Shown in pieces: positions 33,287-40,073 of a stretch of DNA of 64,000 nt. The notes below the pieces were generated by a model. That model saw only the letters and a list, made by a program, of their open reading frames with translations, did not search any database and was not told the DNA's origin. Where the stretch lies: NCBI GenBank assembly GCA_965222225.1, contig CBDCTK010000002.1, positions 576,001 to 640,000 on the forward strand, given 5' to 3'. Position numbers and translations under genes: made by a program. Every line of letters begins with the position of its first letter. Position 1 is the first letter of the stretch. The DNA comes from Candidatus Poribacteria bacterium (GTDB lineage Bacteria > Poribacteria > WGA-4E > JAJDTR01).

Positions 33287-34469
33287 GTGAAGAAAGACGA
33301 TGCCCGATTGGTCGAATCTGTATTGGCTGGTAACCTTGATGACTATCGCAAGTTGGTGGACGCTTACCAGTTATCGGCAGAGCAGTGGGCATTTCGTCAG
33401 GCCAGGAATATCTCCGACGCTGAAGAAATCGCTCAAGAGGCATTCGTTGAAGCGTATTTCAGACTTGATACATTGCGGCAGGCGGGAAAATTCGGTGGAT
33501 GGCCGCGTCGAATCGTGATCAATACCGCAGTTTCTTGGCTTAGACGGCGCAAAGCCACTGTGCGTTTTGACGAGATTACCGGCATCTCCAAGGATGGCGA
33601 ATTGCATGAGCATTACTACCGCTACGAAACGCCAACGCCTCACGATTTGCTGGAACGACAAGAGCAGGAAGATCTGCTACGACGGGCAATTGATCCCCTT
33701 TCTCCAACACATCGCGATATCATCACAATGTTCTATTACGATGATCGCTCCTACAAAGACATTGCAGGCCTCCTCACTACATCGGAGACTGCTGTCAAGA
33801 GCATGTTGTAACGCGCTAGAAGACAATTGAAAGAGGAGGTATTACGGATGAGCTCAGGACAAATCGACAGCAAGATTGAAATCAGCCGCAAATTTGGCGA
33901 ACAGGTCACACAAGACATCATTTCAGTTCGCGAAGAGTTAGCAACAATTCGCTATTGGCACGCTTAGATCCGAGTGCCCGCCATCGGCTAGCGACTCTGT
34001 TCAACGGGCCGTTAAAGAGTTTCGACGATTGCCAGAAGATGATGAACGGATGATTCGATGGGGATTTATTGGTGCTTTCGGTAAAGATGGAGTTGATGGA
34101 GCCGAACATTGGGCATGTAGCATTCACACGATGAAACAGGAAGAATATTTCAACGGACCCAACGCTAGTGACGAAAATATAGCTGTTTTTGCAGATGCCT
34201 TCATCAATCCGCACACCATCCGGATTTGCAAACACCTCTTTTTTCGCCAAGGCAACGAGAAAACTACCCGAGAAGAAATAAAGCGAGAATGTGACCTGAC
34301 CAATAAGGAATTGGATGCAGCGCTTGAAGCGTTCCTAGAGTGGCGTTTTGTGGCATGGGCGGGCGAAGAATTGTTAATACTTGGCCATGGCATGAATTGG
34401 GTTATTACACTGATAGGGATGACAAAGGAAGCAATAAACCAGCGCGACGGTAGCAGTGAGCAAGAGTAA
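33287..34469 (+). pseudogene. ECF sigma factor with C-terminal extension; premature TAA plus a frameshift
   Basis: DAEEIAQEAFVEAY, INTAVSWLRR and SYKDIA..VKSML*RARRQLKEE (stop replaces the expected Tyr). A second frame change near 33940 leads into ORF 34029-34469. Confidence 0.75.
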
Positions 34470-34587
34470 CTCACACATATCTTCAATTTAGTGTTCTAGC
34501 GTGCGATTACTTCGTGCAACCTAGGGGATATCGCTGCGCTAGAACCTTGTCAAAAAAAGGAGTCATCGCACACCGTTTGAAATTTCC

Positions 34588-34617
34588 TTGACACTGTAAC
34601 ATCGCTTATGATATACT
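34588..34617 (+). promoter_or_regulatory. Sigma70 promoter of the his/trp leader
   Basis: TTGACA-N18-TATACT with an extended -10 TG. Confidence 0.75.
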
Positions 34618-34657
34618 TAATCGGCTCTCTGGCGAAGATAGAATGTGGAAGACCCAG

Positions 34658-34759
34658 ATGCAAACTTCAAATCGACAACAACAACTTCAAACTGTATCTC
34701 ATCATTGGCATTGGTGGTGGAGCGCTGTTCAGAATGGGAGTGTGCCTTTGCTGAGATAG
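34658..34759 (+). CDS. Attenuator leader peptide with His and Trp control codons
   Basis: MQTSNRQQQLQTVSHHWHWWWSAVQNGSVPLLR; CAT CAT TGG CAT TGG TGG TGG at 34700-34720; alternative in-frame ATG at 34643. Confidence 0.85.
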   Translation: MQTSNRQQQLQTVSHHWHWWWSAVQNGSVPLLR

Positions 34760-34787
34760 ATTTTTGGATTCATATTTTAGATAAATC

Positions 34788-34829
34788 AAAGCCGTAGGCA
34801 CACGAAACCTGTTGTCTACGGCTTTTTTT
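34788..34829 (+). terminator. Attenuator terminator (3:4 hairpin)
   Basis: AAAGCCGTAGGCA / TGTCTACGGC followed by T7. Its left arm overlaps AGGCACAC, which is complementary to GTGTGCCT (34740-34747). Confidence 0.85.
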
Positions 34830-34876
34830 GTGCCGAATTATCTAGCAAGCAATCGTTGCAACAAGGAGAAAGGTGA

Positions 34877-35260
34877 ATGGATATCCTCAATGAACTCAAA
34901 TTCGACAAAACCGATTTAATTCCTGCCATCATACAAGACGACGAAAACAATGAAGTTCTCATGATGGCTTTTATGAATCGCCAGGCATTGCAGAAAACCA
35001 TAGAATCCGGGCGTGTATGTTTCTGGAGTCGGTCCCGCCAAGAATACTGGATTAAGGGGGAGACTTCGGGGCACACCCAAACCGTCAAGTCCATAGCCTT
35101 TGACTGTGATGGTGACGCGCTCCTGATTAAGGTCGAACAGAAAGGCGGGGCGTGCCACACCGGTTATCGCTCCTGTTTCTTTCGGGATGTCTCCTCCGAT
35201 GGCAATTCCAGCCACATCGTAGGCAAGAAGGTTTTTGATCCTGATAAAGTATACTCGTGA
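34877..35260 (+). CDS. hisI: Phosphoribosyl-AMP cyclohydrolase
   Basis: [38 protein letters not shown] and [10 protein letters not shown] motifs. Confidence 0.97.
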
Positions 35261-35314
35261 AACGAGAAACGCAAAGTATGACGGATTCGCGTTTCACGTG
35301 AGAGGAGACTCCCG

Positions 35315-36799
35315 ATGTATTACCCAAGTTTGGAAGATTTTCGAAAAAAGGCGCAACATGGCAACCTAATTCCTGTCTATAAGTCGATTTTGGCGGATAT
35401 GGAAACCCCTGTGTCAACGTTTAACAAGATTGATGCCGGTGAATACAGTTTCTTGCTAGAAAGCGTTGAGGGGGGTGAACACGTTGGAAGGTATTCGTTT
35501 CTCGGTAGTGAACCATCAATTCTGTTTCAGAGTAAAGAAAATCAGGTGCGCATACAGGATTTGGAGGCAGGCACAACAACGGAGTTCGAAAGCAGCTATC
35601 CACTCGGCGAGCTTGAGAAATTGATGAAGTGCTATCAACCCGTGGAGGTCGAGGGATTACCGCGTTTCCACGGCGGCGCTGTCGGCTACTTTAGTTATGA
35701 CGCTGTGCGTTTTTTTGAAGAGTTGCCCGACAACACAGAAGATGATCGGCATTTGCCAGACTGCTTCTTTATGGTTACAGATACTCTGTTGATATTCGAT
35801 CGGGTTAGTCATCGGATTACGGTGGTAGCGAACGCACATGTTGATGATGACGTAGAGGGCGCATACCAGCGTGCGATTCGACGTATCGACACGCTGATTG
35901 CCAAGCTGAAGAATCCTTTGTTGATGCCGCCTTCAAACGTGCAGCGTGCGGATATAGCCGAGGTTGAGCCTGAATCGAATTTCACACAAGCTGAATATAA
36001 ATCCATTGTCTTACGAGCAAAGGAATATATCGCCGCGGGTGACATCATCCAAGTTGTTCCCTCGCAGCGGCTGTGTATGCCGTTATCAGTGGACACCTTT
36101 GACGTGTACCGTGCGTTGCGTACCGTCAACCCGTCACCATACATGTATTACCTAAAGTTGGGCGACATTCAGATAGCAGGTACTTCTCCTGAAATGATGG
36201 TGCGAGTTGAGGATGGAATGGCGGAGACACGTCCTATCGCCGGGACGCGGCCACGTGGAGACACACCCGCTGAAGATGTGGCGCTGGCAGAGGAGTTGAT
36301 TGCGGATGAGAAGGAGCGTGCCGAACATGTCATGCTTGTCGATCTTGGTCGCAACGATCTGGGGAGAGTTTGCAAATTCCACACAGTTCGCGTTACTGAG
36401 ATGATGTCGATTGAGCGATATTCGCATGTCATGCACATTGTTTCGCATGTTGTTGGCGAACTGTGCGAAGATGTGACCGCCTTTGATGTTATCCGTGCAT
36501 GTTTACCTGCTGGGACACTTTCAGGGGCGCCCAAGATTCGAGCTATGGAGATAATTGATGAGCTTGAACCAACGCGCCGCGGCCCTTATGGTGGGGCTGC
36601 CGGATATTTCAGCTTTTCCGGAAATGCCGATACGGCTATCATCATTCGTACCCTAATCGTCAAAGGTGGCATCGCTTACGTGCAAGCTGGCGGTGGGGTT
36701 GTTGCAGATTCCGTTCCTCAAACCGAGTACGAAGAAACACTCAACAAAGCGCAAGCCGTGCTAAGAGCAATTAAATTGGCTGAGGCAGGATTGGAGTAG
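35315..36799 (+). CDS. trpE: Anthranilate synthase component I
   Basis: FLLESVEGG (Trp-feedback LLES motif), NPSPYMY, SPE, PIAGTRPRG, EHVMLVDLGRND and PAGTLSGAPK motifs. Confidence 0.93.
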   Translation: MYYPSLEDFRKKAQHGNLIPVYKSILADMETPVSTFNKIDAGEYSFLLESVEGGEHVGRYSFLGSEPSILFQSKENQVRIQDLEAGTTTEFESSYPLGELEKLMKCYQPVEVEGLPRFHGGAVGYFSYDAVRFFEELPDNTEDDRHLPDCFFMVTDTLLIFDRVSHRITVVANAHVDDDVEGAYQRAIRRIDTLIAKLKNPLLMPPSNVQRADIAEVEPESNFTQAEYKSIVLRAKEYIAAGDIIQVVPSQRLCMPLSVDTFDVYRALRTVNPSPYMYYLKLGDIQIAGTSPEMMVRVEDGMAETRPIAGTRPRGDTPAEDVALAEELIADEKERAEHVMLVDLGRNDLGRVCKFHTVRVTEMMSIERYSHVMHIVSHVVGELCEDVTAFDVIRACLPAGTLSGAPKIRAMEIIDELEPTRRGPYGGAAGYFSFSGNADTAIIIRTLIVKGGIAYVQAGGGVVADSVPQTEYEETLNKAQAVLRAIKLAEAGLE

Positions 36800-36820
36800 A
36801 CAGATGGACAGGAGAAAACT

Positions 36821-37509
36821 GTGAGTGTGACGCTCGCCCAAGTCGTCCCTTGGGGCAGATCGCTTGAAGAGTACCGACAGATGTTCATGCTCGCCGACGA
36901 AGAACGGACCTTGAAGATTCTAGGAGTTGGTGATGGGCCAGCTAGTTTCAACAGCGAAATGAAGGTGCTGGGTTATACCGTAGTATCAATAGATCCAATC
37001 TATGCACTTTCAAAAAGAAACAGATTGAACAGAGGATTGACAAGACGTACGATACTGTCGTCTCTCAAGTGAAACAAAAACCTGATGATTTCGTGTGGGA
37101 ATTTTTTGTAAACCCAAAGCACTGTGGTTGCTGCCGACTTGAAACGATGCGAAAGTTTTTGCAGGATTATGAGATGGGGAAGTTGCAGGGGCGTAATATT
37201 CCTTCGTCGTTACCAAAACTCGATTTTGACGATTAGCAGTTTGATTTGGCAGTGTGTTTGCATTTGCTCTTTTTGTATTCCGATCAGTTATCATTCAGTT
37301 TTCATCGAGAGTCCATTCAAGAGCTCTGCCGCGTTTCACGAGAGGTGCGAATTTTCCCGCTACTAGCGCTTGATTGCAAGAAGTCGCCGTACGTTTCATC
37401 CATCCAATCGTATTTTCGGGACATGGGCTTCACGGTTGACATTTGTTCAGTACCCTATGAGTTTCAAAAGGGCGGGAACGAGATGATGAGAATTTGCAGG
37501 GATGCTTAG
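36821..37509 (+). pseudogene. SAM-dependent methyltransferase remnant (multiple frameshifts)
   Basis: VVPWGRSLEEYRQMF, GDGPASFN, HLLFLYSDQL, EVRIFPL and VPYEFQKGGNEM are split across different frames. Confidence 0.75.
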
Positions 37510-37519
37510 GAGAAAAACA

Positions 37520-38083
37520 ATGATGCTCATGATTGACAATTACGATTCGTTTACTTACAATCTCGTCCAATACTTCGGTGAGCTAGGGGCAGAGCTTGTA
37601 GTTCATCGCAACGACAAAATAACATTAGGAGAGATTGAACGCCTCGCACCGGATAGAATTGTCATATCACCCGGTCCCTGCACACCTCGTGAAGCGGGGA
37701 TTTCCTGCGACGTAATCCGATATTTCGCGGGCAAGGTACCGATTTTGGGCGTCTGTCTGGGACATCAGTGTATTGGCGATGTCTTCGGCGGGGATGTAGT
37801 TCGTGCGGACCGATTGATGCACGGAAAAACGTCAATGATTGAACATAATGGGCGGAAAATCTTCGCGGGGGTGCAGAATCCGTTTGAGGCAACGAGGTAT
37901 CATTCCTTGATTGTAACGATGGACAGTATGCCAGAATGCCTTGAAGTCACTGCTTGGACGATCGAGGAAGAGATTATGGGGTTGCGACACAAAGACTTCC
38001 CAATCTGGGGTGTACAGTTTCATCCGGAATCAATCTTGACACTTGAAGGGAAAAATATGCTGGAGAATTTCTTGAAAGGCTAA
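37520..38083 (+). CDS. trpG: Anthranilate synthase component II (glutamine amidotransferase)
   Basis: [27 protein letters not shown] and GVQFHPES motifs; AGGAG RBS. Confidence 0.9.
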
Positions 38084-38086
38084 GAG

Positions 38087-38662
38087 ATGTCGGAAACGGA
38101 TCTTCGTACAGAACTTGAATATACCAAAACAATTGAAGACCCACTGCGCCGGCGACTCTATGTTTGTGCGCTTGTCACGGCAGCACTTCCACATTCAAAC
38201 AGGCTACCCTATGTTGTCGTCGTCGGCAATGCGCTAGAGTTCTACACGCTTGGCGATTACACCACCGCGGATGTCGATCTCGTTAGTGGAAGACGATCCG
38301 AAATCGGCAATATATTGGAAAATTGGGGGTTTAATCGGATGAGAAGGCACTGGTATCACGCCGACTTGGATGTTGCCATTGAAATCCCTGATGATGTCCT
38401 CGCCGGATCAGAAGAAAAAATTACGCAGGTCGAGATTGAGGGCTTGAACGTCTATATTATCGGTGTAGAGGATTTAATCATTGACCGGGTCAACGCGTAT
38501 GATCACTGGCGGTCAATTGATGATGGCGATTGGGCAAAAGAGCTAATGGCTTTGTACAAACACGAGATCGATTGGGATTACCTTGTAACATCTGCGCGGA
38601 CAGAAGAGATACTTGATGCACTGAATACACTGAAATCGGCGACTGAGGAAGAGACGATATGA
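38087..38662 (+). CDS. Nucleotidyltransferase-fold protein (DUF6036-like)
   Basis: VVVGNALEFYT.G.YTTADVDLV (GG.A...T.DxD-like), EDLIIDR and IDWDYL motifs. Confidence 0.65.
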   Translation: MSETDLRTELEYTKTIEDPLRRRLYVCALVTAALPHSNRLPYVVVVGNALEFYTLGDYTTADVDLVSGRRSEIGNILENWGFNRMRRHWYHADLDVAIEIPDDVLAGSEEKITQVEIEGLNVYIIGVEDLIIDRVNAYDHWRSIDDGDWAKELMALYKHEIDWDYLVTSARTEEILDALNTLKSATEEETI

Positions 38663-38901
38663 GAATTGTGAACTTCGATCAACACGTCCAAAAAATAAGA
38701 GAGAAATCAAGAGAATATCAACTCAAGCAACGCGCAAAACAGTCGCACCGGTCACCTCGTCGCCGTCCGCGAGATGCGGATTCACGTCGAGATTCGATCG
38801 AATTATCGCTTAAACGCCGCGAACAATGGTTGAAGGATGGGCGGCTGGAAAAACTTGGACCGCGGCATTACCGTGTGCGTCTCAAGGAAGAACCTGTTTG
38901 A
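38659..38901 (+). CDS. Small basic hypothetical protein coupled to the NTase
   Basis: ATGA overlap with the upstream stop; Arg/Lys-rich, 80 aa. Confidence 0.6.
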   Translation: MRIVNFDQHVQKIREKSREYQLKQRAKQSHRSPRRRPRDADSRRDSIELSLKRREQWLKDGRLEKLGPRHYRVRLKEEPV

Positions 38902-39150
38902 AAACTCTAGGTACGACCTGAAGAACGTCGTTTAGTAATCCTAGAAAATTTCATACTTTTCATACCAAATGGTGGTTTTCAATAGAGACAGAGAAAAGGC
39001 TAGAACTTTTGCTATCACTGGCTTCTGCGCAGTTTCGACATTATAGCCAAGAGAGTGTTGGTATGAAACCGGAGTTGCTACCCAAGACGGTTTCAAATCT
39101 CATATTGACTCTACTTTACATAAGAGAAGATGACTTTTCAAACAGGTTCT
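38889..39150. mobile_element. MITE-like element (262 bp) with a nested IR pair
   Basis: Perfect 16-bp IR AGAACCTGTTTGAAAA / TTTTCAAACAGGTTCT; inner 11-bp IR TTTCATACCAA (38958) / TTGGTATGAAA (ending 39068). Confidence 0.65.
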
Positions 39151-39197
39151 AAAGGGAAAAGAAACAATCGTTATCGATCCCCGTAATCTAATCCGCA

Positions 39198-40073
39198 TTA
39201 ACTCCCAAGTGCCTCCGCCAGTGTGTCCCCAATAGTCGCCGGGCTTTGAGAAACGGCAATGCCGGCGGCTCTCAACACTTCAATCTTTTCTGTCGCTGTG
39301 CCCTGTCCACCCGAAATAATCGCACCGGCATGTCCCATTCGTTTACCCTTGGGAGCGGTCTGCCCCGCGATAAAACCGACAACCGGTTTACTCATGTTTT
39401 CCTTCACAAATTGAGCTGCCGCCTCCTCCGCTGCCCCGCCGATTTCGCCAATCATTATCACCGCTTCCGTGTGTTCGTCGGCTTCAAACAACGCTAGAGT
39501 GTCCACGAAAGTGGTACCAATGACAGGATCGCCGCCGATACCAACGCAAGTGGATTGACCAAGACCAAGTTTTGTGACCTGATCCACAGCTTCATAAGTT
39601 AAGGTTCCACTTCGAGAAACGATGCCAATTTTGCCGGGGCGATGGATATAACCGGGCATGATCCCAATCTTGCATTCTCCGGGCGTGATTACGCCGGGGC
39701 AGTTTGGCCCAATCAGTCGAGTGGGCAGCCCGTCCAGAAAACGCTTGGCTTTTATCATATCAAGAACGGGCGCACCTTCTGTGATGCAGACAATTAGGTT
39801 AATGCCGGCATCAGCCGCTTCCATAATTGAATCAGCGGCATCAAACCGAGCTGGCACGAAGATGACGGATGTATCCGCTCCGGTTGCCTCCACAGCTTCG
39901 CTAACCGTATCGTAAACGGAGATACCATCAACATCCGAACCCCCTCTGCCCGGGGTAACACCCGCGACAATCTGTGTGCCGTATTCTACGCACTGTTGGG
40001 TATGGAACCGACCGGAACGTCCGGTGATTCCTTGGACGATAACTTTTGTATGTTTATCTACAAGAATGCTCAT
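39198..40073 (-). CDS. sucD: Succinyl-CoA synthetase alpha subunit
   Basis: [25 protein letters not shown] and RMGHAGA motifs. Confidence 0.97.

Follow-up and report, generated by a model that had tools for sequence, protein, structure and literature searches.

We analyzed a 64,000-nucleotide stretch of a Candidatus Poribacteria assembly (GCA_965222225.1, contig CBDCTK010000002.1, positions 576,001–640,000; hereafter the window), in which a hisI-trpE-trpG operon preceded by a short leader open reading frame occupies positions 34588–38083. We propose that this leader is probably a classical attenuator of the ribosome-mediated type, in which control codons for histidine are combined with those for an unrelated amino acid, tryptophan. 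That the element is a working attenuator is very likely, and comparative evidence strongly supports this part of the proposal. That it responds to shortage of both His and Trp we also hold to be likely, if with less confidence. With some reserve, we lean towards a true two-input switch, set by scarcity of either His-tRNA or Trp-tRNA and selected over the whole history of a bacterial class; as judged from sequence comparison, two inputs would be the best-supported explanation.

All elements of the original prediction, which had been made from the letters of the window, are present where it had placed them (Table 1). TTGACA (34588–34593), an 18-nt spacer and TATACT (34612–34617), with a TG preceding the −10 element, form the predicted sigma-70-type promoter, from which transcription would be expected to start near 34624. 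TTGACA and a TATGATAnnCT-like −10 element are visible also upstream of four other leaders (loci L014, L017, L027, and L052). Between the promoter and the first structural gene lies the upstream open reading frame (uORF), 33 codons long as predicted and presumably translated. An alternative in-frame ATG at 34643 would add five residues; the start kept in relatives is that of the MQT... peptide and not the upstream ATG. The block of seven consecutive control codons reads H-H-W-H-W-W-W, and the TAG stop codon of the leader (34757–34759) sits at the 3′ end of segment 2, i.e., of the strand shared by two alternative helices.

The predicted set of alternative pairings was found by RNAfold as well. 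Helix 1:2 (34695–34711 with 34742–34758; 14 of 17 positions paired, including one G-U) is part of the minimum free energy structure. Helix 2:3 joins GTGTGCCT (34740–34747) to AGGCACAC (34796–34803) with eight of eight positions paired. When segment 4 was omitted, the same antiterminator was obtained (GUGUGCCU with AGGCACAC), lengthened by GCU/AGC. The 5′ arm of the terminator (34788–34804) overlaps the antiterminator partner AGGCACAC. The terminator hairpin 3:4 is followed by the T7 run that had been described and ends 47 nt 5′ of hisI; a simple terminator scanner made no call on it, because its loop is longer than the scanner's limit. The three helices are near-equal in predicted stability (−20.2, −20.3, and −20.3 kcal/mol for 1:2, 2:3, and 3:4, respectively). 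Compared with shuffles, the whole leader folds 1.33 standard deviations better (z = −1.33), and its 3′ part 2.74 standard deviations better (z = −2.74).

In the scheme that we propose, transcription would begin at the sigma-70-type promoter, and a ribosome would translate the 33-codon leader. With both charged tRNAs plentiful, the ribosome would reach the stop codon inside segment 2, and this segment would be either masked by it or base-paired to segment 1. The 3:4 terminator would then form, and polymerase would halt at the T7 run, with an attenuated transcript expected to end at about 34829. With tRNA-Trp or tRNA-His scarce, the ribosome would stall on codons H15 to W21 and cover segment 1, not segment 2. 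Segment 2 would then pair with segment 3, no terminator would form, and polymerase would read through into hisI, trpE, and trpG. A ribosome footprint reaches about 15 nt upstream and about 12 nt downstream of the A-site codon. Hence a stall anywhere on H15 to W21 should cover segment 1 and free segment 2, and a ribosome at the stop codon should cover segment 2. This geometry would be that of the classical model, from whose mechanism we infer stalling, termination, and an OR-gate response to starvation for either amino acid.

Since the folding energy of the leader is unremarkable and the terminator wins when the leader is masked (see below), the case rests on conservation; it is conservation, not folding energy, that excludes chance. 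In the following, families, genera, genomes, contigs, and loci carry labels in f, g, G, C, and L, respectively. A first set comprised 41 genomes of four families, i.e., the window's own and 40 relatives, and hisI was found in all 41. The first 30 hisI loci held a W-H-W-W leader in 25 cases. Of the five exceptions, L012 reads W-Y-W-W and L027 reads H-F-W, while L010 is truncated by a contig end, shows the terminator only, and has its leader on another contig; L014 and L017 are described below. Twelve further regions of this set gave W-H-W-W in five f2 genomes and, in two f4 g7 genomes, a short leader that reads MKSAVCLFH(H/Y)WC up to its stop codon and has a related terminator behind it; no leader was present in f4 g8, in f4 g5, or at a second weak hisI match. 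A second set, drawn from public contigs, was analyzed with pattern scripts and by eye. All but one of its 25 poribacterial loci had the leader, with an in-frame insertion in L035 and in the short f4 form in L052, and the sole exception (L054) has just 32 nt of upstream sequence. A His/Trp uORF of this type occurred in none of 55 loci from other phyla, where a loose pattern flagged five unrelated open reading frames.

For a census of the phylum, we used the exact TGG-CAY-TGG-TGG block followed by segment 2 (TGGCAYTGGTGG N15–30 GTRTGC) as search pattern and its reversed form as control. The pattern matched in 135 of 176 Poribacteria genomes (111 of 133 good-quality ones) and in 13 of 31 genera; the control matched in 0 of 176 genomes. 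By family, matching genomes numbered 9/10 in f1, 25/29 in f3, 97/112 in f2, 1/7 in f4, 1/1 in f6, and 1/1 in f7, and the exact pattern was absent from f5 and f8–f11. Judged by eye, three of 140 matches were not leader-like, among them the only match of genome G025. Families f6 and f7 represent two other orders of the class and have the leader upstream of hisI in both cases; the f6 locus (L123) shows trpE after hisI, and the f7 locus (L124) stops at a contig end before trpE. Most lineages that miss the exact pattern carry a variant of it, such as HHWHWRWH (g15), IHTLHPSHLSYSWYWWF (g12), and DWHWRC (g17), or, in the GC-rich family f8, GHWHWGWCVW, IHTHGILWRHWHWR, and FYHRHWRRLRH. No leader was found in genus g16 (two genomes), in G041 (f10), or in G045 (f5, 433 nt of upstream sequence available). 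As a natural control for loss of the other codon type, we also sought lineages with the leader before trpE alone or before hisI alone and found none; in G041, the one genome examined that has trpE-trpG without hisI in front, there is no leader. The uORF and hairpins of the original prediction have thus stood up to comparison with relatives, and these alignments and searches support conservation across the phylum of the uORF with its W-H-W-W block, of all three alternative helices, and of the setting before hisI-trpE-trpG.

Individual leaders depart from the common form. In L014 (G010, genus g2), terminator and segment 2 are kept, and the leader is degenerate with one Trp and no His (...LYYCERWDSQ...); codons TAT TAT TGC GAA CGG TGG stand where the window has CAT CAT TGG CAT TGG TGG. 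L130 and L131 (genus g16) have neither leader nor terminator before hisI. L017 (G030) and L035 carry in-frame insertions in the block after the first Trp codon, HHW[LVPHCEDPENRE]WHC and EHW[QCEAKTNSTHTGRI]WWH, respectively. The two inserts, of about 36–42 nt, are mutually unrelated, and that of L017 contains an inverted repeat (TCCCGA...TCGGGA). L125 (G071:C1:4525300-4527700, minus strand) has two successive leader-terminator units, the product of a tandem duplication that spans about 185 bp. In the second, the hisI Shine-Dalgarno sequence and first five codons (MEILK) are fused to ...FQVASHYWHWWRF..., and the arrangement is predicted to be a natural double attenuator. Finally, two genomes each have an additional leader on a separate contig, a g4-type leader in a g6 genome (G067; C354, C457) and a g6-type leader in a g9 genome (G115; C3, C149). 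These extra, foreign-type leaders probably reflect mixed bins, i.e., contamination of metagenome-assembled genomes.

We analyzed the conservation of structure in two alignments, A2 with 20 leaders from f1 and f3 and A4 with 24 f2-type leaders, and used slid pairing partners and shuffles as controls. In A2, the terminated form (1:2 plus 3:4) was paired in 89.5% of cells (slid, 36–48%), the antiterminator in 99.4% (slid controls overall, 10–62%), and the terminator helix alone in 94.4%. In A4, 82.8% of cells were paired for the terminated form and 87.8% for the antiterminator, compared with 8–60% for slid partners. Moreover, 10 pairs of the A4 terminated form had changed on both sides, a number reached by 30 of 500 shuffles, and one antiterminator pair is AU in 12 sequences and GC in eight. 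RNAalifold, run without a given structure, recovered the terminator on both alignments. For f2 it also returned the outer 1:2 stem CACACUCC/GGAGUGUG, with one pair that is UA in 11 and CG in nine sequences, and a local hairpin over the Trp codons. For the mixed alignment A2, it placed helix 1:2 in a register (GGCA/UGCU plus GGU/GCC) unlike that of the original prediction, because segment 1 of g4 lacks homology to its counterpart in f1 and g6. In either register, the W-H-W codons are paired with segment 2.

On comparative grounds, we regard the comparison between families as the strongest structural argument. The terminator is GCCGUAGGCA/UGUCUACGGC in f1 and f3, CCUUAUGC/GCAUAAGG in f2, and CGCCGCAGGC/GCUUGCGGCG in f8, and segment 2 (GUGUGCC, GUAUGCC, or GUGUGC) complements the 5′ arm or the loop of its own family's terminator. 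Also, the leader reading frame always ends in or just past segment 2.

Histidine very probably serves as control codon together with Trp, as suggested by codon usage in the leaders. Across 48 distinct leaders, His made up 11.4% of residues compared with 2.5% in the long open reading frames of the genome, and Trp 9.4% compared with 1.5%. In each of four groups, the in-frame count of CAY exceeded all 1000 shuffles; 8.8–12.8% of codons were CAY in frame as against 0–4.9% in the other two frames. Beyond the central His codon, f2-type leaders have further ones at positions 3, 5, 7, 11, 16, and 21. CAY stands right after WW in 45 of 137 matches, i.e., about a third, and in the others this codon is mostly Arg (hand count). 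Distant families with other flanks and another G+C content keep the His/Trp mix (GHWHWGWCVW, IHTHGILWRHWHWR, YHRHWRR), and the short f4 leaders read FHHWC or FHYWC. The block TGGCATTGG (UGGCAUUGG) is kept while its partner differs, GCCUUUGCU in f1 and f3 and UCCAA in f2; what is conserved hence looks like the codon block, not one particular pairing. Segment 1 itself contains His codons in g4, g12, and f2, and a stall on these would be best placed to free segment 2.

These features bear on the most serious competing explanation, which we consider unlikely: an attenuator that senses Trp only, with His codons kept for pairing in segment 1 or in a local hairpin, or as baggage, and with hisI riding along in a trpEG operon. 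At least three Trp codons are the most constant feature of the leaders, and in E. coli two Trp codons suffice (PMC1183508). The window's His codons lie in stem 1:2, and the central CAT is paired in both alignment contexts; this central codon is CAC instead of CAT in just six of 137 matches (hand count). A Trp-only attenuator would fit these observations, and also that one his gene alone is controlled and that hisI-trpE adjacency occurs in 10 of 55 non-poribacterial loci, none with such a His/Trp uORF. It would, however, leave unexplained that His codons recur at non-homologous, variable positions and in lineages with other flanks and terminators, that their enrichment is found in frame only, and that the block sequence stays constant while its pairing partner changes. 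Moreover, a stall at any codon of the control region should relieve termination; according to a modelling paper on attenuation, I:II pairing in E. coli trpL is prevented likewise when the ribosome stalls on the Arg codon beside the Trp codons (PMC1183508). A starved His codon should therefore have this effect too, which would make a His response hard to avoid.

It is improbable that the leader acts by another route, i.e., by TnaC-like arrest through the nascent W-H-W-W peptide, by control of hisI translation, or by leader RNA or peptide acting in trans. Such routes would account for the conservation of W-H-W-W and of the C-terminal SVPLLR as amino acids in f1 and f3, and trans roles are on record for the trp attenuator RNA and peptide of Sinorhizobium (rnTrpL and peTrpL; PMC6614838, PMC7298713). 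The C-terminus, however, differs wholly by family (SVPLLR, GVCAR, GSVRSNG) although segment 2 still pairs, the conserved feature is the full three-helix set with its U-run terminator, and a trans function would add to attenuation rather than replace it. Absence of regulation, with hisI preceded by a decaying remnant or by a terminator that leaks constitutively, is very improbable: leaders are degenerate in g2, absent in g16, f4 g8, and f4 g5, and interrupted by in-frame insertions in L017 and L035, but the exact 12-nt block with segment 2 is found in so many genomes of 13 genera, and the alternative pairings are maintained.

Sequences from the locus are present in metatranscriptome libraries. 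In library X1, a contig of a related strain (record 3, seven differences) covers 34642–35161 and bridges the terminator into hisI; we take it as a read-through-length sequence present in an RNA library, and as no more. Record 25 of X5 spans 34586–34859, i.e., 30 letters past 34829, and was not counted as bridging. Depth in X1 was 39.8 over leader and hisI and about 11 over trpE; neither such differences nor contig ends or uncovered stretches can be taken for transcript starts, ends, or levels.

Several points weigh against the two-input attenuator proposed here. With the leader masked as under a stalled ribosome, the terminator was still preferred at equilibrium. Antitermination must therefore be kinetic, as in the classical model, and we assume so here; masked-leader folding cannot show it, hence our reliance on the fold that precedes segment 4 and on conservation. 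The f1 and f3 sequences of A2 are too similar for covariation to show: a single pair has changed on both sides, and the values observed are matched by most shuffles. Sequences within a family are close kin, and counts are therefore not independent. Termination cannot be read from RNA contigs, and the libraries may contain DNA. The Trp codons of f2-type leaders are located in the loop of helix 1:2, some 25 nt 3′ of segment 1; a ribosome stalled there would not cover segment 1, and the simple footprint argument fails. Our assumption is that it would block helix 1:2 by standing between the arms.

Other such points concern histidine in particular. The central CAT and the two upstream CATs of the window lie in paired sequence, and their nucleotide conservation could therefore be partly structural. 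Ser is also enriched about twofold in the leaders (12.7% compared with 6.2%); as the operon has no serine gene, some of the composition bias must have another cause. Among the his genes of the genome that were examined, only hisI is under this leader, with hisA, hisF, and a hisE-like gene located elsewhere without one, and hisI is not a classical control point. For the two-input attenuator, a bolder extension would be that the output of f2-type leaders is graded, or differs, according to whether the ribosome stalls on His in segment 1 or on Trp in the loop.

The three genes named in the original prediction were assigned by family matches (Table 1). As to its operon, one correction is needed: trpE and trpG do not adjoin, since about 700 nt with a broken methyltransferase-like gene lie between them. 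An AAGGAG Shine-Dalgarno sequence precedes hisI, which encodes the sole phosphoribosyl-AMP cyclohydrolase of the genome (one match genome-wide). Likewise, trpE is the genome's sole gene for a chorismate-binding enzyme (one PF00425 match).

Table 1. Features of the leader and operon, with window coordinates; leader elements are predicted from sequence
Feature	Position	Strand	Remarks
sigma-70-type promoter	34588-34617	+	11/12 consensus positions; predicted from sequence
leader ORF, 33 codons + stop	34658-34759	+	encodes MQTSNRQQQLQTVSHHWHWWWSAVQNGSVPLLR, then stop
segment 1, 5′ arm of protector helix 1:2	34695-34711	+	RNAfold minimum free energy structure; spans three His codons and first Trp codon
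control codon block, codons 15-21	34700-34720	+	CAT CAT TGG CAT TGG TGG TGG = H H W H W W W
segment 2	34740-34758	+	partner of segment 1 (34742-34758) or of segment 3 (34740-34747 plus GCU 34750-34752)
terminator hairpin 3:4	34788-34825	+	core GCCGTAGGCA / TGTCTACGGC; −20.3 kcal/mol
T7 run of intrinsic terminator	34823-34829	+	columns invariant in alignment A2
hisI, monofunctional phosphoribosyl-AMP cyclohydrolase (PRA-CH)	34877-35260	+	PF01502 2.9e-37; NF000768 181.8 bits (cut-off 126)
trpE, anthranilate synthase component I	35315-36799	+	TIGR00564 586.9 bits (cut-off 517.7)
broken methyltransferase-like gene	36821-37509	+	frameshift near 37012, in-frame TAG 37234-37236
trpG, anthranilate/aminodeoxychorismate synthase component II	37502-38083	+	PF00117 4e-62; NF005799 328.6 bits (cut-off 327)

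The methyltransferase-like gene is found between trpE and trpG in L031–L034 (f1 and f3 g6) and is absent from this place in the other poribacterial loci that reach trpG, including f2-type ones. It is intact as a 228-aa open reading frame in L031 and L032, and the L031 orthologue has a weak, below-cut-off match to Methyltransf_11 (E = 7.5e-4). The broken copy of the window may be a genuine pseudogene or else result from an error in assembly. Relative to it, two bases at 37012 and one at 37215 are missing from RNA contigs of related strains.

The poribacterial gene order is itself conserved. In 55 of 55 poribacterial loci, trpE lies 3′ of hisI, directly in 54 and after 1.65 kb in L045; it follows hisI also in nine of ten further poribacterial genomes, and trpG follows trpE in every poribacterial locus long enough to show it. 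The ten non-poribacterial loci with hisI 5′ of trpE, either immediately or at a distance of up to 2 kb (L056, L059, L068, L074, L086, L091, L103, L108, L109, and L110), come from Verrucomicrobia, Omnitrophota, Elusimicrobia, and Actinobacteria; the two genes adjoin in L056 and L068 (Verrucomicrobia), L086 (Omnitrophota), and L091, L103, L108, L109, and L110 (Actinobacteria). The other his and trp genes of the window's genome are scattered singly, and upstream of trpA, as upstream of the his genes named above, no leader was seen. The original prediction had linked the two pathways through consumption of phosphoribosyl pyrophosphate (PRPP). We rejected this rationale for the gene content: the PRPP-consuming steps of the two pathways are HisG and TrpD, and none of hisI, trpE, and trpG encodes such a step.

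Within this genome, the codon block occurs once in leader form, and two other TGGCAYTGGTGG sites were judged by eye not to be leader-like. A scan of the genome for further leader-peptide attenuators (T6 run, ΔG of −12 or lower) went from 612 terminator-like sites to 286 loose and 21 stricter candidates, none convincing besides the leader described here; the scan was crude, and little weight should be put on this absence.

At the operon end, a DUF6036 nucleotidyltransferase-like gene (38087–38662) starts 4 nt past trpG and is overlapped by an 80-aa open reading frame without family match (38659–38901); together they may be a small module of two genes. In L031, too, trpG is followed by sequence for the first 58 residues of the DUF6036 protein. 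Just upstream of the leader promoter lies a gene for a sigma factor of the extracytoplasmic function type (33287–33811; Sigma70_r2/r4, TIGR02937), followed by a 146-aa open reading frame (34029–34469) that has no family match and could encode an anti-sigma partner.

We compared the element with known regulatory RNAs. In a cmscan search of 33500–39500 with E up to 10, no Rfam family matched on 34588–34876, including Trp_leader (RF00513) and His_leader (RF00514). The element hence lies outside these curated families, though its mechanism would be alike. Three matches elsewhere in the searched region (E 0.31–8) were to eukaryotic long non-coding RNA and microRNA families and were set aside as chance. 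The region gave no Rfam match to a T-box, and no TRAP-type (G/U)AG triplet repeats were visible in the sequence by eye.

Like E. coli trpL, the poribacterial element has a short leader reading frame with adjacent Trp codons often followed by Arg (WWR), the three helices 1:2, 2:3, and 3:4, an intrinsic terminator ahead of the structural genes, and trpE and trpG as first pathway genes. Unlike trpL, the leader is twice as long, its 3–5 Trp codons are interleaved with 1–6 His codons, its stop codon falls within segment 2 or at its end, hisI comes first among the genes, and the host belongs to another phylum. As in hisL of enterobacteria, His codons in a translated leader would control a his gene via alternative hairpins. 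In hisL, however, the entire his operon is controlled through seven His codons in a row (PMC1183508), whereas here 1–6 scattered His codons are mixed with Trp and only hisI would be controlled. One leader with control codons for several amino acids, where shortage of any relieves termination, is also found in thr (Thr/Ile), ilvGMEDA (Ile/Leu/Val), and Corynebacterium ilvBNC. Known multivalent leaders combine amino acids of one branched pathway family; in contrast, the two amino acids here come from unrelated pathways, and the operon mixes genes of both.

In Sinorhizobium meliloti, a leader precedes the trpE(G) operon only, the remaining trp genes being scattered with no leader of their own (PMC6614838), which resembles the leaderless, scattered trpA of the window's genome. 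The Sinorhizobium trpL leader has 14 aa with Trp codons (bioRxiv 10.1101/606483). Unlike the operon described here, that of Sinorhizobium consists of trpE(G) alone and includes no his gene (PMC6614838), and the abstracts make no mention of His codons. A shared His/Trp isomerase, PriA, has been described for Actinobacteria (Barona-Gomez and Hodgson 2003, cited in PMC2395257). Actinobacterial hisI-trpE loci show the same adjacency, but no His/Trp leader lies upstream of hisI, and a survey of Actinobacteria reports no conserved RNA element upstream of histidine operons (PMC1262725). According to a 2010 survey, leader-peptide systems had until then been known from no phyla other than Proteobacteria and Actinobacteria; the survey added Firmicutes (PMC2965389). 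Neither a poribacterial attenuator nor a mixed His and Trp leader was found described in the full-text literature, subscription papers and supplementary files being outside that scope; the original prediction had likewise known of no such hybrid. Work on leader peptides in Poribacteria appears, by titles and abstract beginnings, to concern natural-product biosynthesis, i.e., ribosomally synthesized and post-translationally modified peptides.

If true, our proposal would make this leader the first known attenuator to couple two biosynthetically unrelated amino-acid pathways, and a natural two-input logic element. It would also mean that leaders follow the gene content of their operons in the codons they carry, even where the pathways are unrelated. 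The recurrent hisI-trpE adjacency in several phyla hints at a wider, as yet unexplained link between His and Trp. For the Candidatus Poribacteria, which are uncultivated, mostly sponge-associated, and so far readable in their regulation only from sequence, classical attenuation would be extended to a further phylum. The element is compact, about 200 nt, and its uORF, which open reading frame callers miss, may serve as an annotation marker, being present in roughly three of every four genomes of the phylum.

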